Shown here: in pieces, positions 8,847 through 56,735 of the stretch
Numbering within the stretch: position 1 is the first letter of the stretch
How the letters are laid out: each line of letters starts with the position of its first letter
Origin: Elusimicrobiota bacterium
Lineage (GTDB): Bacteria > Elusimicrobiota > Elusimicrobia > UBA1565 > UBA9628
Assembly (NCBI GenBank): GCA_027452025.1
Contig: DAIDHI010000080.1
Location: 58-64,057 of the forward strand
Direction: 5' to 3'
Length of the DNA: 64,000 nt
Translations under genes and position numbers: made by a program
The notes under the pieces: model-generated
What the model was told of the DNA's origin: nothing
Database searches by the model: none
What the model saw: only the letters and a program-made list of their open reading frames with translations

Positions 8847-11561
8847 CTATGCGCCTTTGCTCACCTTCTCGAGAGTCAGCCAGCGGTTGGTGCCCGCGAA
8901 CTTTTGGTGCATGCGCGTGCGCGGCTCGCCGTGGGGTGCTCCGAGCTCGGCCACCTGCAAGTCGGCCAGCGCCTCCAGGCCCTTCTTCTTGAACTCGCGC
9001 AGCGAGGCCTCGAGAGCCATGCCCACTGTGCGGAAGGCCAGCAGCGTCGAGAATTGCAGGACGTAGCCGAGACCGCCGAGCTCCTCGTTGGCGATGAGCC
9101 GGCCCTCTTGCTTGGCCTTGCCCCAATGCAGCGAGGGGGAGAGATTGAAGCCCAGCATCTGATCCGGGAAATACTTGTGCACGCCTTGGGCGAAGGCCCT
9201 CGGCCCGTCGATGCCGGTGTCGTTGAACTCGGCCCAAATGACGTCCACGCCCAGAGACGCCGCCTCCAGGGCCCGCGCGATCGCGTGGTCGACGCCCGGC
9301 CCGCGCCCCCCCGGCACGGCGCCGTCCACGGCGTCGGTGCGCGCGATCACGACGAGGTCCGTCTCCGTCGCCTGGGCGGCGGCCTTGACGGCGATGAGCT
9401 TCTCGATCCACTTGTGGGTAGGTACGAGCACCTTGTCTCGCTTGCTGCCGTGATGGGCGATGATGTGGCCGCACGTGCGCTCGGCCGGATCCTGGTCCTC
9501 GAGATGCACGCCGGCGGCGCCCGCGCGGATGAGCTCGCGCGCCAGCGTGAATGTCTGCGTCGGCCCGCCGAAGCCGGCCTCGATGTCGGCGAAGATCGGA
9601 GGCGCGGCCAGGACCTCGCCGTCGCGGTCGTAGAAGTGTCGGTCGCGCGTGCCCTCGATGCCGCGCAGGAGCTCCTGCACCAGCGAGACCATGGAATGTG
9701 AAGGATATATCCCGATGTCTGGATACATGTTGTGGGCGACGGCCAGCTGCCAGCCGCTGGCGTAGATCGCCTCGAAGCCGAGCTCGGTCAGCAGCGACGC
9801 CGTCACGGCGTCGTAGGCCCCCGCCGTGTGGAGGTAGGACTCCGCCGGATCGCTCCGCCGCCGGGCGAAGCGCGCCTTGAGCAGCGCCCTCAGCTTCTGC
9901 GCCGGATGCGTTTTTTCAAGCGGCGCATACATCTTCGCGAACTGCGCCGCGGGATAGGTCCACTTCTTGAAACCTTCGCTGGGAACGGCCGCCGTCTCGC
10001 TGATCATATCTTGGCTCCATTGGCTGGCGCGCTCATAGCGTCGCTCCAGCGCCTCTCTTTGTGCGCGCTCGCCGTTCTGGCGCTGCGCGCGCAGATCCTT
10101 GAAAATCTTCTTCAGCTCCTCGTCGAACCAGCCCGCGACGAGCTCGCGCGTGACGCGCTCTCCCTCCGCGGCCGCGACGGCGTGCCTGATGCGCTGCGCG
10201 ACCATCAGCCGGTAAATCCGGTCCGTCGCCAGATCCTCCATGAAGTTGCCGATGAGGTCGCCGTGCCGGTCGTAGCCTTTGATCATCCGAGCGCCGAGCC
10301 CCGAGAGCACGCCGAATCGATATTCGATCATGGTCCGGATCGCGTCCTTGGTCCCGGCGACGGTGATCGCCCCGATCCCGGTCGGCGCGGGAGTCAGATC
10401 GGGCTTGACCTCGGCGCGCGCGGGAAACGAATGGAGCTGGTTGGGGGCGGGGAATTGGGAAATGGCGGCCTCGTGTTGATCGGGATGCCCGGTCCAAGCC
10501 CCGTCGAAGCCGCAATCCGCTTCATTCTTCTTGTCCGCGGCCAGCCGCTCCATGGCTCGTCCGTTGACCGCGGCATCGCCGCGGTCGGGAAAGAGCGCCG
10601 TCATGCCCCCGATCGCCAGCGCCCCTCGCCGATGGCAGATCTCGACGAGCCGGCGGCGAACATTCTGAAAAAAAGGGATGTCGTGCGGAATCGTGTTACG
10701 GTCCGGCAGGATCCAGCCCGGGTCGGCGAGCTTGAACTCGAGGAGGCTGGCCATATAGTCCCAGCGGCCCAAATTGAGGCCGATCGCGTGTCGGCGAGCC
10801 TCGTAGAGGATCTCCTCGATCTGATAAGCTGCGGGCAGCGACTCGATAAGATACATGATTTTCGTCGTTCCCTCCGGCACGCCGATCGCCGCCTCCATCG
10901 CGGCCAGCGCGTCCGAAAACCACCGCGCCTCGGCGGCCGATTCCACTTTCGGGATGTAGAATCCGAGCTTAGCCTGCAGCCCCGGCGAGTGGACCGCCGC
11001 TTTACGCAGGTCCGCCGTCGGGAAAAAGACCGCGACCATGTCGAAGAGCGAGGCCGACACAATCTCTCCCGGGACGGCTCGCGTTTCGTCGAGATGCAGG
11101 CCGCGGGGGCGGTAATACATAGCCTGAGCGCTCGGCTTGACGCGGGCGGTCTTGCCCGTTTGGGGGTCGGCATAGGCGAGCGTGCCGCGAATGGCCAAGA
11201 CGGTGTTTTCTTGGGCCGTCCGCACGTGCTCCCACTCGGGCGAGATGGAGTCCTCTCCATCCGGCATGCATCCCGGATCGTCGGCGTTGCACATGCCGAC
11301 CAGGATCTTCGCGTTGTCGGCCGGACCGGTGATCTGATTGCGCTGGTCCTTGGCCCAGTCCGGCAGCCGGATCTTCCAGGCCCCGCTCGTCGCCTCCGAT
11401 TCCGGGAGGTAGTCGGGCATCCGTCCTGCGCGCGCGGACGCCAGGGCCGCGCGGCGCTGCTGCAACAGGGCCTGGCGCCTAGGCTCGAAGCGCCTGTGGA
11501 GAGGCAGCAGGAACCCGCGCAAGTCATCCGGAACAATCGCGACGCTTTGTGTCGTTTTCAT
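8847..11561 (-). CDS. bifunctional malate synthase (N-terminal, A-type) / isocitrate lyase (C-terminal) fusion
   Basis: aa 1-~520 align by eye to malate synthase A (RNQITGP, FYIPKVESAAEARWF, GLNLGRWDYMAS, GGMTALFP, DGAWTGHP). aa ~560-904 align to isocitrate lyase (ASGWQLA, ADIEAGFGG, VHLEDQ, TCGH catalytic Cys-His, VVIARTDA, GFNLSPS). It is a single uninterrupted 904-codon frame. Confidence 0.9.
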   Translation of the reverse strand: MKTTQSVAIVPDDLRGFLLPLHRRFEPRRQALLQQRRAALASARAGRMPDYLPESEATSGAWKIRLPDWAKDQRNQITGPADNAKILVGMCNADDPGCMPDGEDSISPEWEHVRTAQENTVLAIRGTLAYADPQTGKTARVKPSAQAMYYRPRGLHLDETRAVPGEIVSASLFDMVAVFFPTADLRKAAVHSPGLQAKLGFYIPKVESAAEARWFSDALAAMEAAIGVPEGTTKIMYLIESLPAAYQIEEILYEARRHAIGLNLGRWDYMASLLEFKLADPGWILPDRNTIPHDIPFFQNVRRRLVEICHRRGALAIGGMTALFPDRGDAAVNGRAMERLAADKKNEADCGFDGAWTGHPDQHEAAISQFPAPNQLHSFPARAEVKPDLTPAPTGIGAITVAGTKDAIRTMIEYRFGVLSGLGARMIKGYDRHGDLIGNFMEDLATDRIYRLMVAQRIRHAVAAAEGERVTRELVAGWFDEELKKIFKDLRAQRQNGERAQREALERRYERASQWSQDMISETAAVPSEGFKKWTYPAAQFAKMYAPLEKTHPAQKLRALLKARFARRRSDPAESYLHTAGAYDAVTASLLTELGFEAIYASGWQLAVAHNMYPDIGIYPSHSMVSLVQELLRGIEGTRDRHFYDRDGEVLAAPPIFADIEAGFGGPTQTFTLARELIRAGAAGVHLEDQDPAERTCGHIIAHHGSKRDKVLVPTHKWIEKLIAVKAAAQATETDLVVIARTDAVDGAVPGGRGPGVDHAIARALEAASLGVDVIWAEFNDTGIDGPRAFAQGVHKYFPDQMLGFNLSPSLHWGKAKQEGRLIANEELGGLGYVLQFSTLLAFRTVGMALEASLREFKKKGLEALADLQVAELGAPHGEPRTRMHQKFAGTNRWLTLEKVSKGA

Positions 11562-11637
11562 GGTCGCCTAGCGTAAGAAATACCGCCGCGGGACTCAACG
11601 GAGGATCGGATGCGGGAGAGTAAAAGTTTCTTGACGG

Positions 11638-25436: not shown

Positions 25437-26876
25437 ATGGTCCGCCCCATGAAAGAAGCCTTCACTTTCCACGATGTCCTCCTTGTCCCGAAGCGCTCCT
25501 CGATCCGCTCGCGCCGCGACGTCGACACCTCCGGGCGTTTCTCCAAGAACATCGCCCTGGAATGCCCCATCGTCTCCGCGAACATGGATACGGTCACGGA
25601 GGCGAAGATGGCCATCGCGCTCGCGCAGGCCGGGGGCCTGGGCGTCATCCACCGTTTTCTGACGATCGAGGAGCAGGTGGCCGAGGTGGCCAAGGTCAAG
25701 CGCGCCGAGAACATCGTCATCGAGAAGCCTTACACGGTGGGGCCCGACAACAGCGTGGATTTCGCCAGGCGCCTGATGGCCGAGCAGGAGGTTGGCGGCC
25801 TGCTGGTCGTCGACGCCGGGCAAAAGCTGCTGGGCATCGTCACCTCGCGCGACCTGCAGTTCCAAAAAGACGACACCCTCCCGATCAAGCGCGTAATGTC
25901 CAAGAAGCTCGTCACCGGCAAGGTCGGCCTGGACCTCGAGGAAGCCCAGGATATCCTGCGCGAGCACAAGATCGAGAAGCTTCCTCTCATCGACAAGGAC
26001 GGCAAGCTCGCCGGCCTCATCACCGCCAAGGACATCCGCAAGAAGAAGCACCATCCGCACGCCTCCAAGGACAAGAAGGGGCGGCTGATGGCCGGCGCCG
26101 CGGTGGGGGTCGTCGGGGATTTCATGGAGCGCTCCTCCGCGCTCATCGCGGCCGGCGCCGACGTCCTGGTCGTCGACGTGGCGCACGGCCATGCCGACCA
26201 CGTCATCGACGTCGTCAGGAAGATCAAGCGCAAGTGGCCGGGCGCGGAACTGGTGGCCGGAAACGTGGCGACTTACGAGGGCGCCAAGGACCTGGCCGGC
26301 GCCGGCGCCGACGGCGTCAAGGTAGGCGTCGGGCCGGGCTCGATCTGCAGCACCCGCATCGTCTCCGGCTCGGGGCTGCCGCAGCTCTCCGCCGTCATGG
26401 AGTGCGCCAAGATCACCCGCGAGCGCGGCATCCCGGTCTGCGCCGACGGCGGCATCCGGGACTCCGGAGACATCGCCAAGGCCCTGGCCGCGGGAGCTTC
26501 CTGCGTCATGCTCGGCTCTCTTTTTGCCGGCACCGAGGAAAGCCCGGGCTGGACCGTGGTGCGCGACGGAGCACGCTACAAGGTCTACCGGGGCATGGCC
26601 TCCCTGGGAGCGACGTTGTCGCGCAAGCGCAAGGAGCGCTCCGACGACGAGCTGGATCCCATCGAAGTGGCCGAGGTCGTGCCCGAGGGGGTGGAGTCCA
26701 TGGCGCCCTTCAAGGGTCCGGTGGCCGACGTGCTCTACCAGCTCCAGGGCGGCCTTCGCTCCGGCATGAGCTACTCCGGGGCGCGCACGCTCAAGGAGTT
26801 CTGGGACAACTCGGAGTTCGTCCGGATCACCGCCGCCGCTTGGGCGGAGTCGCGGCCGCATCATCTCGACCGCTGA
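25437..26876 (+). CDS. guaB: IMP dehydrogenase
   Basis: [10 protein letters not shown], a CBS pair, [14 protein letters not shown] catalytic Cys loop, [21 protein letters not shown]. An alternative start at ATG 25449 sits just downstream of ACTATAAT. Confidence 0.92.
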
Positions 26877-28197
26877 AGAGCGGAGAAAGCTCCGGAAACG
26901 CTTCCAGCAGCTGCTCGCCGCGCAAGCGGTCCAGCCTCGCCGTCATCGAGCGCAACGCCTCGAGCTCTCCGCGGCAATCGTCGCGCGAATTCAAAAAGGC
27001 AAGCGCCGACCGAAACGGCGCCGCCGCGGCCTCACCCAAGGGCTCGAGGCGGTCGACGTAGGCCCGGTAAGCATCGATGGCGCGCTCCAGCAGCTCCGGG
27101 CCGAGGACGTGCGCCCGGTAATAGCGCGGCCAGCGCAGGGCTTTGATGCGCATGCCGTCCGCGGCCAGGTAGCCTTTTTCAACCCAGTCGCGGTGAAAAT
27201 TGGGCAGGTGGAGCGCGTTAAAGACGCTCAGCGTCGAGGCCACGGCGAAATCCACCCGGGGGCACTCACGCATGAGGCGCTTGCGGTTGTCCACTATGCC
27301 GTCCCACTTCTGCCCTTTGCGCAGGTACTGCGCCCGCGCGCCCATGGCATCGAGGCTGGCGACAACGCGCACTTCGCGGAACTTCGTCCAATAGCGCAAG
27401 GCGTCCCGGGAGCCCAGGCGCAGCGTGGAAAAGTTGGTCGTGTAGAACAAGGCGACGTCGAAGCGCCTGCGCGACGCCAGGTAGTCGAGGACGTCGTAAT
27501 GCTCGCGGGCCAGAAGAGGCTCTCCCGCGCCGCCGAATTGGATCGTGTGAGCCTCGTCGAGATGCGGCTTGAGGACCTCCAAGAAGCGCGCGCCCCGCGC
27601 CCCGGGCTCGATGAGCCTGGGCCGGGGGACCTTGCCGAGACGCTCGCCCGCCATGGCCGCCAGGTCGGGATACCAGCCCGAGCTGAGCTCGGGGTTGCAG
27701 GTCCGGCAGCTGTAGTTGCAAAGGTTGGAAAAGGTCAGGTGCAGGTAGCGCAGACGGGGATCGCGGAGGCCGCCGTCCTTCCTTGTCTGCGCGACCGCGT
27801 CGAAAAAACCGGAGAACCGGTCGTTGGCCCAATTGCGCATGCTGTACCAGCCGAAGCTCTCATGGGCCTGGCAGCGCTCGCATTGCGCAAGCCTCTTGCC
27901 CGCCAGCATGTCCCGGCGCGCCTTCTTGAGGGTTGGCTGGTTGAGAAAGCCGTCCGCGCGCAGGCCCTCCAAGCGCCCCAGGGACTTGCCTCGCGCGTCC
28001 CAGCGGCAGCACGGCGCCAGCCCCCCGTCGGCGAGGTTGCGCACGGCGAGCCAGGGCAGTATGCAGAAGCCCGGCGCTCGTTTAAGCGCGGCGTCGGGGC
28101 TCAGGCCTTCTTCAGGAGCTTGTTCTTGCAGAGTTGCTCGACCAGTGACCCAATCTCCGCCTCGGCCGCGGCGCCAGACACCTCGAAGAGACCGCAA
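26827..28197 (-). CDS. radical SAM protein with N-terminal Cys-rich (twitch-like) domain
   Basis: N-terminal FCILPW...PCC...CERC block, then the radical SAM motif CNYSCRTC (Cx3Cx2C). The listed TTG start (28197) overlaps the PqqD gene by 97 nt. A CTG at 28104 would overlap the PqqD stop as CTGA. Confidence 0.75.
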   Translation of the reverse strand: MRSLRGVWRRGRGGDWVTGRATLQEQAPEEGLSPDAALKRAPGFCILPWLAVRNLADGGLAPCCRWDARGKSLGRLEGLRADGFLNQPTLKKARRDMLAGKRLAQCERCQAHESFGWYSMRNWANDRFSGFFDAVAQTRKDGGLRDPRLRYLHLTFSNLCNYSCRTCNPELSSGWYPDLAAMAGERLGKVPRPRLIEPGARGARFLEVLKPHLDEAHTIQFGGAGEPLLAREHYDVLDYLASRRRFDVALFYTTNFSTLRLGSRDALRYWTKFREVRVVASLDAMGARAQYLRKGQKWDGIVDNRKRLMRECPRVDFAVASTLSVFNALHLPNFHRDWVEKGYLAADGMRIKALRWPRYYRAHVLGPELLERAIDAYRAYVDRLEPLGEAAAAPFRSALAFLNSRDDCRGELEALRSMTARLDRLRGEQLLEAFPELSPLFSGRDDAAATPPKRRR

Positions 28198-28373
28198 AGC
28201 TCGTCGCGAGCCTCGGCCAGCGACAGGCCGCGGGTGAGGGAGTCCCAGATGGCCGCGCCCGTCTCATTGAGCGAGAAATAAGCGCTCGTGTCGGTGTCGA
28301 GGATCACCGTCTCTTTATCGACCTTCCTGAAGGCCACGTTATCAGGAATCTGGAACTTGTCGTTGAGCGTCAT
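28101..28373 (-). CDS. PqqD-family peptide-binding protein (RiPP recognition element-like)
   Basis: 90 aa. VAFRKVDKETVILDTDTSAYFSLNETGAAIWDSL...EIGSLVEQLCKNKLL follows the PqqD pattern. Confidence 0.75.
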   Translation of the reverse strand: MTLNDKFQIPDNVAFRKVDKETVILDTDTSAYFSLNETGAAIWDSLTRGLSLAEARDELCGLFEVSGAAAEAEIGSLVEQLCKNKLLKKA

Positions 28374-28385
28374 GTCGACCGGAGT

Positions 28386-29597
28386 CTACCTAAATATGGA
28401 TAACCGCAGGTAGGCCAGCGCGGCCGCCTCCCAGCGATAACGCGGCGAGCGCGCCAAGGCCGCCGCCCCGAGCCGCCGGCGCAAAGGGGCGTCTCGAAGC
28501 AGGCGCTCCAGCCCGGCGGCGAGCGCCGCCGGGTCCTTGGGCGCGACGAGCAGGCCCGTGCGCCCGTCCTGGACTACGTGGGCCAGCCCGCCGACGCGCG
28601 TCGCCAGGACGGGCTTCGCGCAGGCCATGGCTTCGACGGCGGCCATGCCGAATATCTCGAAGCGAGACGGCAGGACGAGGAAAAGGCACCGGCGCATCAA
28701 GGCGCGCAAGGCGGGGCGCTCGACGAGGCCTAAAAACCGCACGCGCCGGCCAAGGCCCAGCTTGGCGGCCAGCGACTGGAAATAGCCGTCGAAATGATCC
28801 GGGCCGCAGAGCACGAGCGTAACCCCGGGGAATCGCGCGCACACATCGCGCCAGGCGAGCAGCAGCAGGTCGATGCCTTTGTAGTAGTGAAGCCGCGCCG
28901 CGCAAAGGATGAAGCGCGAGCCCGCAGGCAGCGGAAGCGGCGCCGGGCGGCCCCGAAACTCGCCGGGGTCGAAGCCCGACGGCACGACGGCGACGCGGCG
29001 CGAGGCTCCGTCCGTGCGGCGGATGTCCTCGGCCACCGAGGGCGAGATCACGGTGACCCAGGCCGCGCGCCGAAACGCTTCGTCGAGAAGCCGCCAGCGC
29101 CGGCCGCGCTGAGGACGCTCGCCGGTGACCCGGTCCCAGGAATGAAAGGTCAGGCCTACGGGCACGCGGCGCGCCGAGCAGGCCCGCCAAAGCGCCGTGA
29201 GCTGGTTGTCTCGGAAGCAGCGCATGACGTGAAGATGGATCATGTCGGGCCGGAAGTCCGCGAGGGCCGAGGACAGCTGCGCGAAGATGCGCCGGCCGCG
29301 CCGGCGACGCTGCGAGCCGTTGCCCCCGAGGCGCCAGAAGCGGCCCCAGGGCCTGTCCTCGAAAAACGGCAGCCGCGCGCCGGGCGCCAACTGCGCCGCG
29401 GCGGCGACCGGGCAGCCGAGCTTGGCATAACCCGCGGCGAGGCCTGCGATGGTGGACTCGGCCGTCGGATCGCCGGCGAGGAACTCGGCGCAGATGAAAA
29501 CGCGGGGCCGGGCTAGGGGAGGACGGCCAGGGCGATGCCGGCCTGCGTGGCCAAATAGGTCAACGCGCCGTGGACCACCAGCACCGGCTTGAGCCAA
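28386..29597 (-). CDS. glycosyltransferase family 4 (GT-B, group 1)
   Basis: The C-terminal half carries the GT4 signature (LVLPSRFEIFGMAAVEAMACAKPVLATRVGGLAHVVQDGRTGLLV). The start is unresolved. High-GC3 coding in this frame begins only at ~29516, where there is no ATG/GTG/TTG, and the nearest canonical start is TTG 29597, inside the small ORF. Confidence 0.7.
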   Translation of the reverse strand: MAQAGAGGPRRVDLFGHAGRHRPGRPPLARPRVFICAEFLAGDPTAESTIAGLAAGYAKLGCPVAAAAQLAPGARLPFFEDRPWGRFWRLGGNGSQRRRRGRRIFAQLSSALADFRPDMIHLHVMRCFRDNQLTALWRACSARRVPVGLTFHSWDRVTGERPQRGRRWRLLDEAFRRAAWVTVISPSVAEDIRRTDGASRRVAVVPSGFDPGEFRGRPAPLPLPAGSRFILCAARLHYYKGIDLLLLAWRDVCARFPGVTLVLCGPDHFDGYFQSLAAKLGLGRRVRFLGLVERPALRALMRRCLFLVLPSRFEIFGMAAVEAMACAKPVLATRVGGLAHVVQDGRTGLLVAPKDPAALAAGLERLLRDAPLRRRLGAAALARSPRYRWEAAALAYLRLSIFR

Positions 29598-29635
29598 GGG
29601 CGCCTCTTGCGCTTCTTGTCCTTTCCCTTGGCCAT
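29513..29635 (-). CDS. 40-aa small ORF (candidate precursor peptide or membrane anchor): MAKGKDKKRKRRPWLKPVLVVHGALTYLATQAGIALAVLP
   Basis: Not in the supplied ORF track. It has an ATG start and a TAG stop, and 37 of 40 codons end in G/C by hand count, against roughly half in the overlapping GT4 frame. It lies between the GT2 and GT4 genes of the PqqD/radical SAM operon. The SD (GAGG) abuts the ATG, which is a weak context. Confidence 0.5.
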   Translation of the reverse strand: MAKGKDKKRKRRPWLKPVLVVHGALTYLATQAGIALAVLP

Positions 29636-29653
29636 CCTCGGAATTAAAGCAGG

Positions 29654-30622
29654 TCACGGGGCCCCTGTCAACGCCAGGACGCCTCGCAGAGCGGGAGAGG
29701 CGAAATAAGGGTGCGCCGCGGCGCGCGAAAGCCACTCGCGCGCCCGCGGCCCGTCGCCGCTTTTGAGGCAGAGACCGGCCATCGCCGCGTAGAACTGCGC
29801 CGGCGCGGGATGTCCCTTGACGGCCTCGGCGTAGCGCCTGATGGCCAGGTCGAAGCGTCCGGCGGCGGCGTGCCGGGCCGCCAGCCACTCCGCGCGGTCC
29901 CAAGGGTGGCTGTCGGGCAGCGGAAAGCGCGCGAGACGAGAGCCCCATTTCTCGAAGAACTTCAAGCGCGCCGCCCCGGAGTCCGGATTGCGCCGCAGAT
30001 GGTCGTGGATCACGGCGCTGCCGCCGTGATAGAGGACGGCGAGCCCCTTCAAGCGAGCCCTCAGGCAATAGTCGAGGTCCTCGAACTGGCAAGGGAAGAA
30101 CCTCTCGTCGAACGGACCGACGCGCGAAAACAGCGAGCGGCGCATGAGCCAGCAGGCGCCGATCACGCTTTCGCAGCGGCGGGTGTAGTCGCGCTGGCCC
30201 AGGTCGCGCTCTTCCTCCCCGGCGTTGCGGCTCCACGGAGAGCCCATCTCCGCGGCGTTGATCGTGCCGTCCGGCCGCGCCACCTTGCAGCCGACGATGA
30301 CGGCCTTACGGTCGCCCTCGGCGGCCCGGAGCATCCCTTCCAGCCAGCCAGCCGTGGCGCGGGCATCGTCATCGAGCAGGACCACCCAATCAGAGCGGAG
30401 TCGCCCGCGGACGGCGTTGACGGCGCCGGAAAATCCCAGGTTGCGGCGGTGGCGAACCGCCTCGACGTCGGCGCCTCGCAGCCACGACGCCGTTCCGTCG
30501 CGGGAGGCGTTGTCGACGATGATCAGCCGGTGCGGGACGGCCCGCGTGTGGCGTCGGACCGATTGCACGCACGACGCCAGAGCCCGTCTGGCGTCGTGCG
30601 TGACCACGACGATGTCGATCAT
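29654..30622 (-). CDS. glycosyltransferase family 2 with C-terminal helical-repeat tail
   Basis: MIDIVVVTHDA...LIIVDNASRDGT...VVLLDDDA (DxD) GT-A pattern. GAGGAG SD overlaps the upstream stop. Confidence 0.8.
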   Translation of the reverse strand: MIDIVVVTHDARRALASCVQSVRRHTRAVPHRLIIVDNASRDGTASWLRGADVEAVRHRRNLGFSGAVNAVRGRLRSDWVVLLDDDARATAGWLEGMLRAAEGDRKAVIVGCKVARPDGTINAAEMGSPWSRNAGEEERDLGQRDYTRRCESVIGACWLMRRSLFSRVGPFDERFFPCQFEDLDYCLRARLKGLAVLYHGGSAVIHDHLRRNPDSGAARLKFFEKWGSRLARFPLPDSHPWDRAEWLAARHAAAGRFDLAIRRYAEAVKGHPAPAQFYAAMAGLCLKSGDGPRAREWLSRAAAHPYFASPALRGVLALTGAP

Positions 30623-30629
30623 CGGCTCC

Positions 30630-32612
30630 TCAGCTGGCCGCGGCGGAAAACGCGGCGAAATCGCTCATGCGAGGCATCTTGCGCACATAGGCGACGGCCT
30701 GCATCCGGTCGAGCGCGAGGCGCTGGGCGACCGGCAGGCTCGACATGGGCATGGCCAGGAAAAGGAAAGAGTCGTCCTCTTCGAAGACCCAGCGCCGCTT
30801 GACGAGGTCTGCGAGCGCCCGGCGCACGCGCTTGGCCGAGCAGCGGGGAAACTTTTCTTGGCAGGCCCGCAGGACGCCGGGGAAGGGACGGATCTCGTCG
30901 CAGGCTTCCAGGATCGCGGCCTCAAGGCCCGTGACCAGGCGCTGCCGGTGCTCGATGCGCCGGGAAAGCCCGAGCGGACGCGAGTCGTAGACCTCCATGA
31001 AGCCGAGGCCCTTGCGATAGGCGAAATAGTTCTTCTGGTAGATCCGCTGCCAATGGTCGAATATCGGGCGTATCACGGGCTCGGCGTAGTCAGCCGGATC
31101 CGGCTGCCCTTCGACGCTCGGCGCCTCGAAGAAGTAGGCGATCTCGCCGCGCTTGAAGCGCGGCTCTGGGTAGAGGAAACGGTATTCCTCCATAGGCACG
31201 GGCTCCCGCAGCCCGAAGCGCCGCCAGTCGAAGTAGTAGGGGCTGAAGCGGTCGACCCGGATGACGTGGGCGTAAAACGGCGGCTGCAGGTGCGTCGCCG
31301 CCGCCATCGTATCGGCGATCCTGCGGTACTCGTCGGGCGACTCGCCGGGAAAGCCCCACAGCATCCCCCACGTCAGCTGAATGCGGCCCGCGCAGGCCTT
31401 GAGCGCCTGGAGGTTTTGGATGGTCTTGACGCCCTTGCGCATCAGCTTGAGGACGGGCGTGCTGAAGCTCTCGATGCCCGCTTGGATCGCCAGGATTCCG
31501 GCCTCGTGAAGAGTCTCGATCTGGGCCGCCGTCAAGTTCGCCTTGGTCTCGAAAAAAACGTGCCACTCGAGCTTGTGCTTCTTGCGAAACTCCGCCAGGA
31601 CGGCGGTGAGGCTGGTGAGGTGCTCCACGCTCAGGATGTTGTCGCAGGCATGCAGCCGGTAGGTCTTGTATCTCTCGAAGAGGAAGGCGATCTCGGCGGC
31701 GACGGCCTGCGCCGGCTTGGCGCGGAACGTCATGCCGTCGCGGTTGAGCCCGCAGAACGTGCAGTGCTGCTTCTGCCCCCACCAGCATCCGCGGGAGGCC
31801 TCGAAAGTCACCTGCGGCGAGACCCACGATGCCATGCCCGAGGCCTCAAGCTCACGGAAATAGTCGTCGTGGTCGGGAACTGGCACGCGGCGCATGTCGG
31901 CCAGGCGCGTCTCAGCGGGGTTTCGGGAGACGACGCCCTCGCCTGTCCGCGCCGAGACATGCGGCATCCCCTTCGGGAGCCGGCCGGAGCGGATGTGCCG
32001 CAGCAGCGCCGGAAACGCCTCCTCGGCCTCGCCTTCGACGACGTAGTCGACCCACTCGCAGCCCTTGAGCGTCGCCACCCCCATCTCGCCGTCGCAATTG
32101 GCTCCGCCGAGGACGATCGTCGTTTTCGGATGCTTGCGCTTGATGAGGCGGGCCAGCGCCAGAGAGGCGATGTGATTGTGGAACATGCTGCTGAAGCCGA
32201 CGACGTCGTAGCGCCCCCAGGGGACGTCGGCCAGGCAATGCTCGAGGAAAGCCGGCACGTCGTCGCGCACGAGCCTGCGCAGGCGCTCGCGCGGAAATTT
32301 TCCAAGGTTCTTGGCGAACACGGGCTCGGCGAGGACGTCCTCGAGCTCGTCAGGCAGCTCCTTGAGGCCGCCCGGGCCGAAAAGATGATAGGCGAAGGCC
32401 CACTGCGCGAAATGCCCGTAGGGAGCGAGCGCGAAGGCGTCGAGAAGGTCGTCGGCCCACCGGCCGAAGCGCAAGTTGAGGTAGTGGACGTCGCAAGGCA
32501 TCCCTTCACGCGCGAGGACGCTTTTGAGCACGCCGACTCCGAGCGGAGGCCGGTCGGGCGCGGCCCAAGGCATGACGACCAAGGCGACGCGGAGGCTGCG
32601 CGGTTTGGACAT
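30630..32612 (-). CDS. B12-binding-domain radical SAM enzyme (class B; resembles RiPP C-methyltransferase-type)
   Basis: N-terminal LRVALVVMPWAAPDRPPLGVGVLKSVLAREGMPCDVHYLNLRF (cobalamin-binding-like Rossmann region), then SRGCWWGQKQHCTFCGLN (Cx7Cx2C cluster motif). 660 aa from ATG 32612. The listed 840-aa ORF has a junk N-terminus. Confidence 0.85.
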   Translation of the reverse strand: MSKPRSLRVALVVMPWAAPDRPPLGVGVLKSVLAREGMPCDVHYLNLRFGRWADDLLDAFALAPYGHFAQWAFAYHLFGPGGLKELPDELEDVLAEPVFAKNLGKFPRERLRRLVRDDVPAFLEHCLADVPWGRYDVVGFSSMFHNHIASLALARLIKRKHPKTTIVLGGANCDGEMGVATLKGCEWVDYVVEGEAEEAFPALLRHIRSGRLPKGMPHVSARTGEGVVSRNPAETRLADMRRVPVPDHDDYFRELEASGMASWVSPQVTFEASRGCWWGQKQHCTFCGLNRDGMTFRAKPAQAVAAEIAFLFERYKTYRLHACDNILSVEHLTSLTAVLAEFRKKHKLEWHVFFETKANLTAAQIETLHEAGILAIQAGIESFSTPVLKLMRKGVKTIQNLQALKACAGRIQLTWGMLWGFPGESPDEYRRIADTMAAATHLQPPFYAHVIRVDRFSPYYFDWRRFGLREPVPMEEYRFLYPEPRFKRGEIAYFFEAPSVEGQPDPADYAEPVIRPIFDHWQRIYQKNYFAYRKGLGFMEVYDSRPLGLSRRIEHRQRLVTGLEAAILEACDEIRPFPGVLRACQEKFPRCSAKRVRRALADLVKRRWVFEEDDSFLFLAMPMSSLPVAQRLALDRMQAVAYVRKMPRMSDFAAFSAAAS

Positions 32613-32657
32613 TTTGTTGCAAGGGGACGTCGCTGAAGTATTATAGTATATCGCCCT

Positions 32658-33209
32658 ATGGAGATCGTCGAGGAAGCCAGCGATATTTTCAGCTTTCAGC
32701 TCCTCTCGCCGAGCTATTGCCAAAAACTCGTCCGGTGGGCTTCGCGGGACCTCCGGTGGAATCGCGGGCGCGTGTACGCCGGTCCGCGGCGCCTGCAGGA
32801 CGCCGCCTCCCGCCGCTGCCTGGAGCGCACGGTCGCCGGCCTGCCCCCTCCCTGGAACGAGCTGGCGCAGGCTTGCCGCGAAAAGGCGCTTTCCGCGGCG
32901 CGGCTGTGCTGGCGCGAGCGCTTCAGGCGGCTGACCGGAGCGCGTCTGGTGCGCTACGACCCCGGCGGCTATTTCAAGATGCATTGCGACTTCCTCCCCA
33001 GCCTGCGGGTCAAGCCGCGCTTCCTGAGCCTGGTCTGCTATCTCAACGAAGACTTCTCGGGCGGGCGCACGGCCTTCCCGCGGCAAGCCCACGACATCGT
33101 CCCAAAGACCGGGAAAGCCGTCCTCTTCCCGTCCTCGATCACGCACCCTCACGAAGCCCAGGCCGTCCGAGAGGGGACCCGCTACGTGATCGTGGCCTGG
33201 GTCGAATGA
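32658..33209 (+). CDS. 2OG-Fe(II) oxygenase (prolyl-4-hydroxylase-like)
   Basis: YFKMHCD (HxD) ... ITHPHEA (distal His) ... RYVIVAWV, a double-stranded beta-helix pattern. 183 aa. Confidence 0.75.
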   Translation: MEIVEEASDIFSFQLLSPSYCQKLVRWASRDLRWNRGRVYAGPRRLQDAASRRCLERTVAGLPPPWNELAQACREKALSAARLCWRERFRRLTGARLVRYDPGGYFKMHCDFLPSLRVKPRFLSLVCYLNEDFSGGRTAFPRQAHDIVPKTGKAVLFPSSITHPHEAQAVREGTRYVIVAWVE

Positions 33210-33964
33210 GGGGCCGCCGCCCCGCGGTCTGCGTCGTCATCCCGACCTTCGACCGCATCGAGTTCCTCAAGCCCTGCCTGGAGTCCGTCTACGCGCAGAC
33301 GTTTCGCGGCTTCGAAATCGTCGTCGTGGACGACGGCTCGACCGACGGCACGGCGCGCTGGCTTGCCTCGCGGCGGCTGCCGCGCCTGACCTTGCTGCGC
33401 AACGCGCGCAACCGCGGCCCGGCCAGAGCCCGCAACCGCGCCCTCGCCGCGGCTTCGGCGCAGCTCTTGGCGTTCCTCGATTCGGATGACCTCTGGCGGC
33501 CCGGCTATCTGGACGCGATGACGCGCGCCTTTCGCGATCCGGGCATCGTGGCCGCGTTCTCGGGCTACGACCGCATCGACGAGCGCGGACGCCTGCGCCG
33601 CGGCGCCGGGCGCCCGCGCCGCAACCTGGCCCTGGAGGCGGTCGCGGGCCTCGAGACCCCGCCGCCGCCCTCGACGATGGTCATCCGAAGGCAGGCCTGC
33701 CGAGAGCTCGGCGGCTTCGACGAGCGCTTCGGACGGGTAAACGAGGACATCGACTTCCTGCTGCGCGCGGGCCTGCGCTACGGACCCGCCTCCTTCCGCC
33801 TCCAGCCGCGCAAGCTTGTCTTGCGCCGGCGTCATGGCGGCCAGATCAGCCGCCGCCTGCAAATCGAGCCTCTCGACACCGCCTGGCTCAACCTCAAGCA
33901 TCGCTGGTGGCTCGAGCTCCTGGCCGAAGGCGCTGGGCCCGGGCCCAGCGCGCTTAGGCCCTAA
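33206..33964 (+). CDS. glycosyltransferase family 2
   Basis: VCVVIPTFDRIEFLKPCLESVYAQTFRGFEIVVVDDGSTDGT ... FLDSDD GT-A motifs. The ATG overlaps the upstream stop (ATGA). Confidence 0.82.
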   Translation: MRGRRPAVCVVIPTFDRIEFLKPCLESVYAQTFRGFEIVVVDDGSTDGTARWLASRRLPRLTLLRNARNRGPARARNRALAAASAQLLAFLDSDDLWRPGYLDAMTRAFRDPGIVAAFSGYDRIDERGRLRRGAGRPRRNLALEAVAGLETPPPPSTMVIRRQACRELGGFDERFGRVNEDIDFLLRAGLRYGPASFRLQPRKLVLRRRHGGQISRRLQIEPLDTAWLNLKHRWWLELLAEGAGPGPSALRP

Positions 33965-34005
33965 GCCCCTGGGGCGCGCGGCGTGTTGCCGTTAAAATAG
34001 TCCAG

Positions 34006-35943
34006 ATGCTCAGAATATTGGCAGCTCTCCTGCTCGCCTGCCCGGCCGCCGCCGGCCAACTCCAGCAGGCCCCGGGGCCAGTCGAAGTCCCCTCTTTGCC
34101 CGCCGCGCAGGCCGCCGTTTTCCCGCGGCTCGACGCCCCGGCCGCGGCCGCGTCGCCCCAGGCGACGGCTTCCCAGGCGCCTCAAGCGCCCGCCGCGGCC
34201 GAAGCGGCGGAGCCGGCGGCCGCTCCGGCGCCGGCAGCCTTCGAGGCCCGGCCCTCCTTCGCGCGCCGCCTGCTCTATTCCAACTTCGCCGCGCGGCGCA
34301 TGGCGGCGCGCCTGCTCGACCGAAACCTTGGCTCCGCCCTCGGCGACCGGCTGTCATCGGAGCCGGCGCTGGCCCCTCACGCGCGGTTTTGGAGCGACCA
34401 ATCCGTGCGCATCGAGCTCGTCCCGGCCAAGGCCCTCGGTGCCTCGACGCGCGCGGCGAGCTACTCCCACAACCGGCGAGTCGTCCGGATCAACCGCGAC
34501 CGGGCCGCGCGCTGGCTCTGCGAGATCGCCGCCCAGGGAGCCCCTTTCGCGCAAGGCATCGACGTCCTGACCGAGAAACTCTTGCCGCTGCTGGCCCACG
34601 AGTTGCGCCACGGAATCACCAAGACCCAATGGCAGCGCGCCCTGGGCCATCGCCTCCCGATCGAGGCGCGCGAAAACGAGGTCCTCTCCTTCGCCGACGA
34701 GCTGCGCGTCTGGCAGGGGCTCAAGGATCGGCCGTCGGCGAGCGCCGAGCTCAGCCACCTCGACGAGCATCACCGGATCGTCGCCTCCTACTGGGCGCGG
34801 GACGGCTGGGCCGGTCTGGACTCGATCATCGACCAGGTGTATCGCCAGCCCGCCTTGCTCGGAGACCGGCAGGCCGTGCACGACGCCGCGCTCGCGGCCG
34901 CGGTCCGGACGCTCGGCGGCTCCGAGATCTCCGGCCTCCCCCAGACGCTCGCCGCGGCCTCCGGCGACGAGTCTTGGAGCCGCTTTCAGGAAGGCTTCCG
35001 CCCGCTCTATGAGGAGCAAAAGCGGGCCGTGGCGCCGGCGCCCGAGGAGACGCATCCGGCCTCGGCCATCGTCGCCGCGCTCAAGGCGACGGCGCTCAGG
35101 CGCCTGGCCTTCCGGCCTTGGGTCGTTCATCGCCTTCTGCCGCGCCTGCTCGGCGGCGCCGTGGTCAAGACCATGACCGCGGAGCTCGCGCGTCTCGCCT
35201 CGACCGGAGAGGAGGCCGCGTATCTGGCGCGCCAAGGTCCGGCGATCAAGCTCGACGGCGCTCCGCGCCTCGACGCGCACGACATGGCGCTCTACGACCG
35301 GGGCGCGCGCGACACGATCTATCTCAACCGCGACCGGCTGGGCGTCTGGCTGGCCTACCGTCTCATCGAGGGAGACTCGCCCAGGCAAGCCGCGCGCACG
35401 GTCGGCCTGAAGTTCCTTCCCACTCTCGCACACGAAGTGCGTCACGCGATCACCGACGGCCAATGGCTCGAGCGTTTGGGGTTCACCTTCATGGGCGGCA
35501 ACATCGAGACGGAGATGATCTCCCACGCGCAGACCGTCCGGGTCATCGGCGAGGTCAGGGCCAGGCACGAAAAGGAGCTTTCCTCGCGCCCGATCCCCGG
35601 ACTCGACGACCACCACGACGAGCTGCTCGAGCTTTGGCGGCAGGGCGGCTGGAGCGCCCTGGGCGCCTACGTGCGCCGCGAATACGAGACGCGCGTCTCC
35701 ATCCTCCGGACGGAGCGCGGCGAGCTCCACAACGTCATGAGCGCCATCGGCCTCGTCACCGCCGTGGGCATGTCCCAGGAAAAGGACGCCGCCGCGGCGA
35801 TGCGCGCCGTCTACGGCGACTTCCGCGCGTTTTTCTCCCAGCTCGACGACGCGGCCTCCTGGGAGGCCTTCCGCGGCCGCTTTTCCGGCGTCTACGCGCG
35901 CCAACTGCGCGCCGTCAGCCCCCGCCTTCCTTCCGCCCGCTGA
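34006..35943 (+). CDS. secreted protein with two tandem HExxH modules (hypothetical metallopeptidase-like)
   Basis: Signal peptide MLRILAALLLACPAAAG and an Ala/Pro-rich linker, followed by two homologous ~250-aa halves. Each half has ...NRDR...WL...LLAHELRHGI / LAHEVRHAI. Confidence 0.6.
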   Translation: MLRILAALLLACPAAAGQLQQAPGPVEVPSLPAAQAAVFPRLDAPAAAASPQATASQAPQAPAAAEAAEPAAAPAPAAFEARPSFARRLLYSNFAARRMAARLLDRNLGSALGDRLSSEPALAPHARFWSDQSVRIELVPAKALGASTRAASYSHNRRVVRINRDRAARWLCEIAAQGAPFAQGIDVLTEKLLPLLAHELRHGITKTQWQRALGHRLPIEARENEVLSFADELRVWQGLKDRPSASAELSHLDEHHRIVASYWARDGWAGLDSIIDQVYRQPALLGDRQAVHDAALAAAVRTLGGSEISGLPQTLAAASGDESWSRFQEGFRPLYEEQKRAVAPAPEETHPASAIVAALKATALRRLAFRPWVVHRLLPRLLGGAVVKTMTAELARLASTGEEAAYLARQGPAIKLDGAPRLDAHDMALYDRGARDTIYLNRDRLGVWLAYRLIEGDSPRQAARTVGLKFLPTLAHEVRHAITDGQWLERLGFTFMGGNIETEMISHAQTVRVIGEVRARHEKELSSRPIPGLDDHHDELLELWRQGGWSALGAYVRREYETRVSILRTERGELHNVMSAIGLVTAVGMSQEKDAAAAMRAVYGDFRAFFSQLDDAASWEAFRGRFSGVYARQLRAVSPRLPSAR

Positions 35944-36011
35944 GGGAACTTTTTTACCCCCTCGTTCGTATACCTAGGGTCGAGACCTTCGACAAGGAGG
36001 AGGAAGAAGCC

Positions 36012-36371
36012 ATGAAACGGACACGTTGGGCGTTGACGTTGGGCCTGCTGCTCGCCACCGCGGCGGCGACGCAGGCCAAGGGCCGCAAGGCGGATCAGGC
36101 TCTGCCGGACTCGGCGTTCGCGTCGATCGAGCAGGGGCCGCAGGGCCAGAAGATCCGGCGCCTGCCCTACCGCGACTCGTCGGGCGTGGTCGACCCCAAG
36201 CGCCTGCGCGCCGCGCTGCGCATGTGGAAGCGCGTCAAATGGCAGGACCCCACGGATGCGCAGCCGGCGCTGGCCCTGCTCACGCAGGCCAAGCAGCGGC
36301 TGTGCCAAGAGGGCAAGATGAAGTGCGGCAAGGGCCGCAAGAAGGGCAAGCCCAAGAAAGCCAAGGTCTGA
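36012..36371 (+). CDS. small secreted basic protein (hypothetical)
   Basis: AAGGAGGAGG SD, signal peptide MKRTRWALTLGLLLATAAATQA, Lys-rich C-terminus. Confidence 0.5.
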   Translation: MKRTRWALTLGLLLATAAATQAKGRKADQALPDSAFASIEQGPQGQKIRRLPYRDSSGVVDPKRLRAALRMWKRVKWQDPTDAQPALALLTQAKQRLCQEGKMKCGKGRKKGKPKKAKV

Positions 36372-36389
36372 GACGGCCGCGAAAGCGGC

Positions 36390-36426
36390 GCGGCCTCTCC
36401 GCTCGCGCGGAGAGGCCGCTCATTTT
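36390..36426. terminator. GC-rich hairpin between convergent transcripts (likely bidirectional terminator)
   Basis: 13-bp stem GCGGCCTCTCCGC / GCGGAGAGGCCGC with loop TCGC, followed on the + strand by TCATTTTA. It sits between the stop of the 36012-36371 gene and the 3' end of rnpB. Confidence 0.5.
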
Positions 36427-36797
36427 AGGGAGAGCCTGTACCCCGAATTCTGTTCCCCCCTCGCGGAGGGCGAGGATCATTTCTCTGATGCGGCTACCGA
36501 GGAGCCGCCCCGCCTCTCGGCGGGACCGCGCGGGCCGCGCGAGCTCCCACACTGCCTTGCTCCGGACGGGGTTTGCCGTGACGCCGTCCCTCGCGGGACG
36601 GCCGGTGGGCTCTTGCCCCACCTTTTCACCCTTGCACTCCGCACGGTCTGCGGAGTGCGGTTGTTCTCTGTGGCACTTTCCGTCGGCGAAGCGTATGGTC
36701 TTCGCCTCCCCGCCTTTCGACGGGCGTCCTGCCCTGCGGAGTTCGGAAGTTCCTCCCCCCGCGACGCGTCGCGGAAGGCGATCCCCCGGCTCTCCCT
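36427..36797 (-). ncRNA. rnpB: RNase P RNA (bacterial type A-like)
   Basis: The reverse complement contains GGAAAGTGCCACAGAGAACAACCGC, GCAAGGGTGAAAAGGTGGGGCAAGAGCCCACC, GGCAAACCCCGTCCGGAGCAAGG and ACAGAATTCGGGGTACAGG. P1 pairing is AGGGAGAGCC...GGCTCTCCCT. The ends are approximate. Confidence 0.85.
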
Positions 36798-51676: not shown

Positions 51677-51751
51677 TGGTGGGCAGTATAGGATTCGAAC
51701 CTATGACCCCTGTCGTGTGAGGACAGTGCTCTACCGCTGAGCTAACTGCCC
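51677..51751 (-). tRNA. tRNA-Val (anticodon CAC), CCA-encoded
   Basis: Reverse complement: GGGCAGT TA GCTC AGCGGTA GAGC A CTGTC CTCACAC GACAG GGGTC ATAGG TTCGAAT CCTAT ACTGCCC A CCA. This gives a full cloverleaf with a 7-bp acceptor stem and a TTCGAAT T-loop. Confidence 0.9.
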
Positions 51752-51862: not shown

Positions 51863-52378
51863 ATGAGCGACAGGCTTAAGGCGGCGAAGGCGCGGTTCGT
51901 GTCCACCTGGGGCGAGATGGCGTCCCATTGGGGCATCAACAAGACGATGGCGCGCATCCATGCGCTGCTCATCGCCTCCGACGCCGCGCTCTCGGTCGAC
52001 GAGATCATGGCAACGCTCTCGATCAGCCGCGGTAACGCCAGCATGAACCTGCGGGCGCTGATGGACTGGGGCCTGGTCAGGCGCGTTTCGGTGGGCAGCG
52101 AGCGGCGCGAGTATTTCCAGAGCGAGAAGGACGTCTGGAACATGTGCTGCCGCATCGCGCGCGAGCGCAAGAAGCGGGAGATCGAGCCCGTGATCGGCGC
52201 TCTGGAGGAATGCCTGCGCGAAGCCGGGGAAGGCCAGGACTCGGCGGCCTTCCGGCGCCGGACCAAGGAGCTCTTGGAGCTGGTCAAGACCCTCGATTTC
52301 GTGCTCGGCAAGGTCGCCGCGCAAGAGAAGAACGCCGTCATGCCGCGCGTGCTGACGCTGCTCAAGGCCATGTCATGA
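51863..52378 (+). CDS. GbsR/MarR-like winged-helix transcriptional regulator
   Basis: FVSTWGEMASHWGINKTMARIHALLIASDAALSVDEIMATLSISRGNASMNLRALMDWGLVRRV is the GbsR-type wHTH pattern. Confidence 0.7.
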   Translation: MSDRLKAAKARFVSTWGEMASHWGINKTMARIHALLIASDAALSVDEIMATLSISRGNASMNLRALMDWGLVRRVSVGSERREYFQSEKDVWNMCCRIARERKKREIEPVIGALEECLREAGEGQDSAAFRRRTKELLELVKTLDFVLGKVAAQEKNAVMPRVLTLLKAMS

Positions 52379-53319: not shown

Positions 53320-53320
53320 G

Positions 53321-53761: not shown

Positions 53762-53767
53762 GGCGCC

Positions 53768-54739: not shown

Positions 54740-54745
54740 GCGGAC

Positions 54746-56592: not shown

Positions 56593-56612
56593 CCGGCAGA
56601 CAGGAGTCAAGC

Positions 56613-56735
56613 ATGAACGACCAGAAGAAGACCGTGACCGTCGTGAAGGCCGAGCCGAAGCTCGTTTGGCAGACCCCCTCCCTGGAGGAGGTCTCCGATC
56701 GGGTGATGGCGCAGCCTTACATCCGGTTCACGTGA
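56613..56735 (+). CDS. 40-aa candidate precursor peptide (PqqA-like): MNDQKKTVTVVKAEPKLVWQTPSLEEVSDRVMAQPYIRFT
   Basis: AGGAG SD lies 7 nt upstream of ATG 56613. 37 of 40 codons end in G/C by hand count. The TGA stop overlaps the GTG start of the next radical SAM gene (GTGA). It is visible only as the tail of the listed ORF 56544-56735. Confidence 0.6.
   Translation: MNDQKKTVTVVKAEPKLVWQTPSLEEVSDRVMAQPYIRFT

Follow-up and report, generated by a model that had tools for sequence, protein, structure and literature searches.

A 64,000-nucleotide stretch of an Elusimicrobiota genome (GenBank assembly GCA_027452025.1, contig DAIDHI010000080.1), called the window below, contains eight tightly packed genes at positions 26827–33964, among them a 40-residue open reading frame (ORF) that sits between genes for radical S-adenosylmethionine (SAM) enzymes, glycosyltransferases, a PqqD-family protein, and an oxygenase. 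This locus is probably the biosynthetic cluster of an undescribed family of RiPPs (peptides made on the ribosome and modified after translation), with the 40-residue ORF encoding the precursor.

The cluster and its small open reading frame

Six of the genes form a minus-strand operon that encodes, in order, a cobalamin (B12)-dependent radical SAM enzyme of the TIGR03975 family (30630–32612), a GT2 glycosyltransferase with a C-terminal tetratricopeptide-repeat (TPR) segment (29654–30622), the putative precursor peptide (29513–29635), a GT4 glycosyltransferase (28386 to ~29507), a stand-alone PqqD-family protein (28101–28373), and an N-twitch radical SAM enzyme matching NF033640 (26827–28104), the start of which is uncertain. 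On the other side of an AT-rich, divergent intergenic spacer of 45 bp (32613–32657), plus-strand genes encode a 2-oxoglutarate (2OG)-Fe(II) oxygenase of the 2OG-FeII_Oxy_3 family (32658–33209) and a second GT2 enzyme (33206–33964), which are coupled by an ATGA overlap at 33206–33209. A preliminary description made from the DNA alone had listed the same eight genes, and its order, strands, coordinates, spacing, and family calls all agree with our hidden Markov model assignments and gene map. Its gaps of 7, 18, and 12 nucleotides between minus-strand genes are exact, and the last minus-strand gene overlaps the 3′ end of the convergent guaB gene by 50 nucleotides (26827–26876), as that description had it. 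The spacer carries promoter-like elements on both strands. Its plus strand contains TTGCAA-16-TATTAT, which is the one sigma-70-like match from a scan of 10.5 kb (26000–36500), and its reverse complement contains TATAAT ~30 nucleotides upstream of the ATG of the B12 enzyme. The G+C content is ~68% across the whole window, and the composition of the cluster is the same as that of its flanks.

The 40-residue peptide has three parts: a charged N-terminus (MAKGKDKKRKRRP), a recognition block (WLKPVLVVHGALTYLAT), and a variable core (QAGIALAVLP). We infer the boundary between leader and core from the −17 spacing rule of lasso precursors. The peptide belongs to a family of 11 aligned members and one divergent member (from the locus labeled L087). 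A profile built from four members and run against 1.84 billion representative proteins recovered six other ORFs of 41–47 residues, with E values from 8e-20 to 2e-4; the ORFs of 42–47 residues recovered in this search scored 3e-14, 1e-10, 4e-8, 2e-6, and 2e-4, and the best values for ORFs outside the profile-building set were 3e-14, 1e-10, and 4e-8. Because the 40-residue ORF matches independently called ORFs in a protein set of this size, the gene arrangement is beyond chance.

Alignment of the 11 members reveals a shared block, [KR][PKS]-[YW]-x-[KV]-P-x-[LMI]-x2-[HYF]-G-x-L-x-[FY]-L, preceded by a Lys/Asp/Glu-rich N-terminus that is conserved in composition only and followed by a variable tail of 7–10 residues. 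The tail is QAGIALAVLP in the window and QAEIASAFIP, QAEIAAMATP, HATNASALIP, QAEVASAVIP, DIAEAATS (twice), DAGALCPC, KAWAARMISN, DVGAQIT, or FAAATSLP in the remaining members, so that proline is the C-terminal residue in six of the 11. The distance from the conserved Tyr/Trp to the C-terminus is 23–26 residues in all family members, and conserved residues are encoded by differing synonymous codons between loci. This predicted division into leader and core is the standard pattern of a RiPP precursor, and the shared block corresponds to a leader motif of the lasso/PqqA type. The only curated-family matches of the peptide were to lasso precursor models and were weak (two of the 11 members), no NHLP or Nif11 match was found for the window precursor in NCBIfam, and we found no description of the peptide family in the searchable literature. 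The identity of the ORF as a small membrane protein was considered and rejected on the family alignment: the last 23 residues of the window peptide are uncharged, but nine of the 11 members have no uncharged run of more than 15 residues.

The family relatives of the B12 enzyme number in the thousands, of which those with at least 40% identity form only a small clade; several members of this clade are labeled Elusimicrobiota by NCBI. Its closest relatives, 53% identical, are located in peptide-bearing loci. More generally, the peptide lies beside a B12-enzyme homolog (40–53% identity) in all eight members on contigs of at least 7.5 kb. These eight loci are the window, L002, the P0003 contig, L004, L086, L087 (with the divergent peptide), P0163/P0025 (8019 bp), and P0164/P0006 (7536 bp); the pairings in the last two were made by matching size and source database rather than read. 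Locus L002 encodes MANEKDAGAPKRKPYVKPLLILHGSLTFLATQAEIASAFIP directly upstream of a GT4 ortholog, together with its 53%-identical B12 enzyme, a PqqD protein, a 2OG oxygenase, and a sulfatase. On the P0003 contig, two small ORFs stand upstream of a GT4 gene; the contig also encodes the B12 enzyme, a PqqD protein, and a pair of 2OG oxygenases. In L004, from an Elusimicrobiota metagenome-assembled genome (MAG), a 43-residue homolog follows three tandem TIGR03975 genes, with GT4 and PqqD genes nearby; in L086, the peptide homolog is beside the B12 enzyme and is followed by GT2, GT4, and GT2 genes; and L087 encodes a divergent, 67-residue version. Among the six loci with readable gene content, GT4 is present in all six and PqqD in five (the window, L002, L004, L087, and the P0003 contig). 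The preliminary description had suggested looking for a small ORF conserved alongside PqqD and glycosyltransferase genes in relatives, and just such an ORF, of 41–47 residues, occurs in L002, L004, L086, P0003, P0163, and P0164.

More distant relatives provide a negative control. A scan of genome contigs with the B12-enzyme alignment yielded, among the matches listed, only relatives of 40% identity or less. In 80 such distant TIGR03975 loci (Nitrospira, Acidobacteria, and others; again among the matches listed), the peptide motif was absent, a PqqD match occurred in one, and a full-length GT4 ortholog occurred in none. The peptide family has so far been seen only in uncultured Elusimicrobiota-like bacteria, by way of metagenomic genomes. 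A metagenome scan with the peptide profile returned a single locus, L085, which proved to be a low-GC false positive.

Two features of the related loci deserve separate mention. First, L004 (positions 1–21950; GCA_044450935.1) is far more elaborate than the window locus: its 43-residue precursor, which ends in DIAEAATS, is surrounded by the three tandem TIGR03975 genes, four other B12 radical SAM genes, and genes for a split transketolase, an aldo-keto reductase, a radical SAM-SPASM enzyme, and a sulfatase; the same core with a different leader occurs in P0161. Second, four related loci (L002, 725–2104; L087, 8581–9939 and 1228–3417; L004, 18890–19831; and the P0003 contig) have a gene of the PF00884 sulfatase family together with those for the peptide, the B12 enzyme, and PqqD, whereas the window has no such sulfatase. 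The L002 and L087 sulfatases are 49% identical, and two of the loci add a radical SAM-SPASM gene resembling anSME.

Putative leader-recognition and tailoring enzymes

The B12 enzyme matched TIGR03975 over residues 9–620 of 660 with a score of 585.7 bits (cutoff 281.85) and contains PF02310 (39.3 bits) and PF04055 (48.1 bits) domains. Its cluster motif, CWWGQKQHCTFC, has the spacing Cx7Cx2C and is invariant among 13 homologs. The preliminary description had likened the N-terminus of this Cx7Cx2C protein to that of RiPP C-methyltransferases, a likeness borne out by a TIGR03975 score well above cutoff, and we regard the enzyme as a putative peptide C-methyltransferase. MpcB, a B12 radical SAM enzyme of the clavusporin pathway, has the same unusual Cx7Cx2C motif and acts with a partner protein to install up to eight β-methyl groups on Pro, Val, Ile, and Thr residues of a leader-bearing 39-mer (PMC10849626). 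Based upon the shared motif and the MpcB precedent, the TIGR03975 enzyme would be expected to C-methylate a core rich in Ala, Ile, Leu, Val, and Pro. The link from TIGR03975 to the mpc pathway is made through the Cx7Cx2C motif only (PMC10849626), with MpcB compared by description. No cluster protein matched DUF5825 in Pfam, and the TIGR03975 locus of an actinomycete (L039) likewise lacks DUF5825 and is not of the mpc type.

The PqqD protein scored 54.5 bits against PF05402, above cutoff. Its best NCBIfam match was the lasso PqqD chaperone NF033530 (53.2 bits versus a cutoff of 70), and its sole significant sequence matches in the PDB were lasso B1 proteins, namely TbiB1 (E = 1.7e-7), TfuB1, and 9x90; the alignments with TbiB1 and TfuB1 cover the full length of the PqqD protein. 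A single-sequence AlphaFold2 model of low confidence (predicted local distance difference test, pLDDT, 58) had a β-β-β-α-α-α topology. Orthologs are present in L002, L003, L004, and L087. The peptide matches this picture from its own side: the window leader contains WLKPVL, all 11 aligned members contain [YW]-x-[KV]-P-x-[LMI], and YxxPxL is the leader motif of lasso precursors, at positions −17 to −12 (PMC10368454). These similarities suggest that the PqqD protein is a putative leader-binding RiPP recognition element (RRE) resembling lasso B1 proteins. Identification of the locus as a lasso cluster was nevertheless rejected. The ORFs scanned across the window included neither a B2 protease (transglutaminase-like) nor a lasso cyclase (the C protein; asparagine-synthase-like), and the core, QAGIALAVLP, contains no acidic residue and departs from the lasso rule of Gly/Ala/Ser/Cys at position 1 and Asp/Glu at positions 7–9.

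Of the enzymes, GT4 has the tightest link with the peptide. It matched PF00534 (140 bits) and PF13439, has full-length orthologs in L002 (53% identity), L004 (41%), and L086 (38%), a partial match in L087, and a called gene on the P0003 contig. In three loci, the GT4 and peptide genes are immediate neighbors, and in two more they lie within two genes of each other. The GT2 enzyme encoded at 29654–30622 (PF00535, 81.9 bits) has homologs of ~32% identity in L087 and bears a C-terminal TPR_19 domain at residues 252–304 (28.6 bits) that the preliminary description had missed. TPR domains usually bind peptides or proteins. The GT2 enzyme encoded at 33206–33964 (PF00535, 112 bits) has homologs of 30–39% identity in L086, L087, and L001.

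The best NCBIfam match of both GT2 enzymes was MftF (71 and 112 bits; cutoff 280), a result that raises the prospect of a cofactor pathway with mycofactocin- or PQQ-like logic, in which one or more C-terminal residues of the peptide would be modified by a radical SAM enzyme acting with PqqD, excised, and glycosylated by MftF-like GT2 enzymes. We consider this reading highly improbable. The combination of PqqD, radical SAM enzyme, and short peptide would suit it, as would the nearly fixed distance from the leader motif to the C-terminus and the C-terminal proline of six family members. However, both MftF matches are far below cutoff, and no equivalent of MftB, MftC, MftD, or MftE is present. 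The C-termini of the family also vary (…VLP, …ATS, …CPC, …ISN, and …QIT), unlike the invariant cores of cofactor precursors, and of the two radical SAM enzymes, just the one of the class B methyltransferase type is conserved with the peptide.

The oxygenase matched PF13640 (64.5 bits), and an HxD...H...R signature is visible in its translation. It had been called prolyl-4-hydroxylase-like in the preliminary description, a call that its closest solved relatives, all peptidyl Lys/Pro hydroxylases, sustain: the lysyl hydroxylase/glycosyltransferase LH3, the Bacillus anthracis prolyl 4-hydroxylase P4H, P3H1, and mimivirus L230. Two of these are hydroxylase-glycosyltransferase fusions, at a weak sequence similarity (E ~1e-4). 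Orthologs 42% identical are present in L002 and L003, and two copies are encoded on the P0003 contig. In loci with an oxygenase (the window, L002, and the P0003 contig, for at least one of its two ORFs), precursors end in proline. L004 has no oxygenase and a precursor ending in ...ATS; L086 has a proline end and no oxygenase in the 15 kb available. This sample is far too small to call a correlation.

The second radical SAM enzyme, which scored 304 bits against NF033640 (cutoff 170), has N-twitch cysteines that are conserved in an alignment of 25 sequences (FC..PW, PCC, C..C, and CNYSCRTC). The preliminary description implied that PqqD and this enzyme form a pair. That part of its reading did not hold: the N-twitch enzyme was not found in other peptide loci, so the pair is not the conserved core of the system, and PqqD travels instead with the peptide, the B12 enzyme, and GT4. 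Homologs of the N-twitch enzyme elsewhere adjoin a sugar epimerase/dehydratase (in L088) or other radical SAM genes. Its AlphaFold2 model was of high confidence (pLDDT 89.5), and in Foldseek it resembled peptide-modifying enzymes (CteB, anSME, SkfB, and SuiB) and sugar-modifying enzymes (BlsE and DesII) about equally, with TM scores of only 0.35–0.40. This generic SPASM/twitch likeness does not discriminate between the two types of substrate, and we treat the enzyme as a lineage-specific accessory with a putative tailoring role. Two of its homologs, P0129 and P0141, are fused to long TPR arrays (698–715 residues); together with the TPR segment of the cluster GT2, these fusions are a weak hint as to the type of substrate.

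The RiPP reading and its competitors

Taken together, the locus is best described as a combination of a lasso-type leader and RRE, a class B methyltransferase of the clavusporin/polytheonamide type, an oxygenase of the peptidyl-hydroxylase type, and glycosyltransferases. Gene content, family memberships, peptide conservation, and the co-occurrence of peptide and enzymes are established; from these we infer methylation and glycosylation of the peptide, as well as all of the chemistry that follows. In the mechanism that we propose, PqqD would bind the leader block and present the short hydrophobic core to the TIGR03975 enzyme, taking the place of DUF5825 as the leader-handling partner. The TIGR03975 enzyme would then methylate unactivated side-chain carbons, as MpcB and enzymes of the PoyB/C type do. 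The 2OG oxygenase could add a hydroxyl group, with the C-terminal proline or the Lys/Pro residues of the leader as candidate sites, and GT4, helped by the two GT2 enzymes (one of them TPR-fused), would attach one or more sugars. The N-twitch enzyme might contribute an extra, lineage-specific tailoring step on the peptide or the sugar.

A bolder form of this proposal is that the locus represents a RiPP class of linear peptides of ~7–10 residues that are C-methylated at unactivated carbons, hydroxylated, and O-glycosylated, in which the lasso leader/RRE module has been re-wired, in the absence of lasso protease and cyclase, to a class B methyltransferase and a dedicated GT4, the nearly fixed distance from leader to C-terminus acts as a ruler that positions the C-terminal residues in the active sites, and the pathway is the first natural-product pathway to be defined for Elusimicrobiota. 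We advance this version only tentatively, as a possibility about which we are more doubtful than confident.

A number of observations weigh against the RiPP reading, in its general or its specific form. First, the 2OG oxygenase, the GT2 enzymes, and the N-twitch enzyme are missing from some peptide loci. Second, some homologous loci contain genes of glycan type, including GT9, ABC-2, DegT, sulfatases, and a 1474-residue β-helix protein; the GT9, ABC-2, DegT, and sulfatase genes keep a partial glycan reading alive. Third, the solved relatives of GT4 (the SPS-like protein Tll1590, MshA, and PimA) act on small molecules or lipids. Fourth, the window core contains no Ser, Thr, Asp, or Glu, and O-glycosylation would require prior hydroxylation because neither Ser nor Thr is available. 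Fifth, no leader peptidase, exporter, or immunity gene was recognizable in the window cluster (26.8–34 kb). Sixth, all family members come from metagenomes or MAGs. Finally, two genes lack a canonical start where homology predicts one; the minus-strand stretches concerned are 29499–29597 (GT4) and 28044–28197 (the N-twitch gene). GT4 has CCC at the site where its L002 ortholog has GTG, and initiation from TTG at 29597, the closest canonical codon in frame, would make GT4 overlap the precursor ORF. For the N-twitch gene, the candidates are CTG 28104, TTG 28197, and GTG 28044. The start model used by NCBI drops the family-conserved FCxLPW cysteine, so that an upstream start is required, and CTG 28104, which overlaps the PqqD stop as CTGA, is the best alternative. 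Either initiation or coupling of a non-canonical kind accounts for the missing starts, or the assembly contains an error here.

Some of these points would be explained if two modules lay side by side, one for a methylated RiPP (precursor, PqqD, and B12 enzyme) and a separate one for a glycan or glycoconjugate (GT4, the two GT2 enzymes, the 2OG oxygenase, and the N-twitch enzyme), the products of which would not be joined to the peptide. The non-peptide acceptors of solved GT4 relatives, the sugar epimerase/dehydratase beside N-twitch homologs in L088, the GT9, ABC-2, and DegT genes of some related loci, and the variable presence of the GT2, oxygenase, and N-twitch genes would all fit such an arrangement. 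We nevertheless judge it unlikely. A GT4 ortholog occurs with the peptide in every locus examined and is its immediate neighbor in three, the genes of the two supposed modules are interleaved in one tight operon with gaps of 7–18 nucleotides, one GT2 enzyme has a TPR domain of the peptide-binding type, the oxygenase is of the peptidyl-residue hydroxylase type, and the window contains no polysaccharide export or polymerization machinery.

The wider surroundings of the cluster bear on a third competitor, in which the locus would be an ordinary polysaccharide or glycolipid tailoring cluster, the small ORF would encode a membrane or regulatory protein or be no gene at all, and the PqqD protein would be a non-RiPP accessory. 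The left flank of the cluster holds guaB, hemB, a cytidylate-kinase-like gene, and genes for an aminotransferase, an aldehyde dehydrogenase, and a TPR-kinase. The right flank encodes a secreted protein, followed by RNase P RNA, a CT398-like protein, a copper amine oxidase, and Omp85/TamB. No Wzx/Wzy, priming transferase, polysaccharide export or polymerization, or sugar-nucleotide gene was found in the window cluster or its flanks. The preliminary description had stated that its RiPP reading would fail if homologous clusters had no conserved small ORF and sat inside lipopolysaccharide, exopolysaccharide, or O-antigen loci; we find that the small ORF is conserved with the enzymes and that the window flanks are housekeeping, which supports the RiPP reading. 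Three glycosyltransferases, the uncharged C-terminal 23 residues of the window peptide, and the glycan-type neighbors in some related loci would be natural features of a polysaccharide cluster. By contrast, the conserved leader/core pattern, a hydrophobic run too short for a membrane helix in nine of 11 peptides, membership of the B12 enzyme in a family curated as RiPP maturases at a score well above cutoff, PDB matches of PqqD to lasso leader-binding proteins only, and the housekeeping flanks all argue against such a cluster, which we regard as very unlikely.

The secreted protein at the right edge (34006–35943, plus strand) is a possible but uncertain further member of the cluster. The gene for this 645-residue protein begins 41 nucleotides 3′ of the GT2 gene on the same strand, and the plus-strand arm may extend into it; a terminator-like hairpin lies at 35927–35948. 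The protein has a signal-peptide-like N-terminus followed by two tandem domains that are 28% identical to each other (E = 1e-20), each with an LAHExRH (HExxH) motif and a downstream Glu, and it has no match in Pfam or NCBIfam. It is a possible novel metalloprotease adjoining the cluster. Its candidacy as the leader peptidase is unsupported, as no homolog occurs in other peptide loci.

The window has several other features of note. Although the cluster includes a B12-dependent enzyme, a search of the whole window revealed no cobalamin riboswitch. A class A RNase P RNA (182 bits) lies at 36423–36797 and a tRNA-Val(CAC) at 51677–51751, both on the minus strand. Another locus with PqqD and radical SAM genes (52144–57700, plus strand) encodes a polyprenyl-synthase-like ORF with DDxxD, a PqqD-domain protein (53321–53761), a radical SAM enzyme, a MenA/UbiA-like prenyltransferase, and two more radical SAM paralogs; all of its NCBIfam matches are below cutoff, and it has the look of an isoprenoid- or quinone-type pathway in which a PqqD-domain protein is employed, rather than of an obvious RiPP locus. 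A 906-residue ORF at 8847–11567 (minus strand) joins N-terminal malate synthase domains to C-terminal isocitrate lyase/phosphoenolpyruvate-mutase domains and appears to be a fused glyoxylate-shunt enzyme.

If the RiPP reading is correct, a tiny hydrophobic peptide would undergo RRE-guided C-methylation by a cobalamin radical SAM enzyme as well as hydroxylation and glycosylation, a pairing absent from the literature searched. The lasso-type leader/RRE module would then be reusable with entirely different tailoring enzymes, which would be useful for engineering of hybrid RiPPs, and the cluster would offer a first view of specialized metabolism in an uncultured phylum. If the reading is wrong, the cluster would be an unusual glycan locus. 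We view the system as a well-supported lead for genome mining and natural-product discovery that introduces no new principle and opens no long-standing question; orphan RiPP families of this kind are not rare.

Comparison with known systems

Individual parts of the proposed pathway have counterparts in several characterized systems. LH3 and mimivirus L230 couple a peptidyl 2OG hydroxylase to a glycosyltransferase, as the plus-strand arm would do through two distinct genes that share an ATGA overlap. The analogy lies in the logic alone; the sequence similarity is weak (E ~1e-4), and the substrates are unrelated. Mycofactocin biosynthesis, like the present cluster, combines a PqqD-type chaperone and a radical SAM enzyme with a short peptide and GT2 enzymes for glycosylation. 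It differs in that Mft models were missed or matched far below cutoff here, the core is variable, and the radical SAM enzyme is of the B12 methyltransferase type.

In the Poy cluster, class B radical SAM C-methylation and Fe/2OG hydroxylation act on one ribosomal peptide, and this combination of class B methyltransferase and Fe/2OG oxygenase is the feature that proteusins such as the polytheonamides share with our locus. Proteusins have long NHLP-type leaders and are not known to use an RRE, and glycosyltransferases are not known to be part of Poy. The cluster described here, by contrast, has a putative RRE and glycosyltransferases, and no epimerase or dehydratase was identified in it. Lasso systems share the [YW]xxPxL…G leader and a B1 protein that aligns with PqqD over its full length (TbiB1 and TfuB1), but they depend on a B2 protease and cyclase that the scanned ORFs of the window did not include, the window core has no Asp or Glu with which to close a macrolactam, and both PqqD and the peptide scored below the NCBIfam lasso cutoffs.

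Clavusporin biosynthesis (mpc) in actinomycetes (Zhang & Seyedsayamdost 2024, PMC10849626) differs from the present system in several respects. The methyltransferase partner is DUF5825, encoded downstream of the B12 enzyme, there and PqqD/RRE here; an S9 peptidase and a major facilitator superfamily transporter are encoded upstream there, and neither was found in the window cluster or flanks; the precursor sequences are unrelated; the hosts are Actinobacteria there and Elusimicrobiota-like bacteria here; and the present cluster alone adds a 2OG oxygenase, a further radical SAM enzyme, and three glycosyltransferases. It is nonetheless the best functional precedent for the central enzyme. Both systems have a short precursor (39 residues there, 40 residues here) with a hydrophobic core and a cobalamin radical SAM enzyme with a Cx7Cx2C motif, and the clavusporin enzyme requires both a partner protein and the leader to carry out multiple β-C-methylations (PMC10849626). 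By analogy with clavusporin, and if the RiPP reading is correct, the product of the cluster could be a surface-active or envelope-associated peptide.

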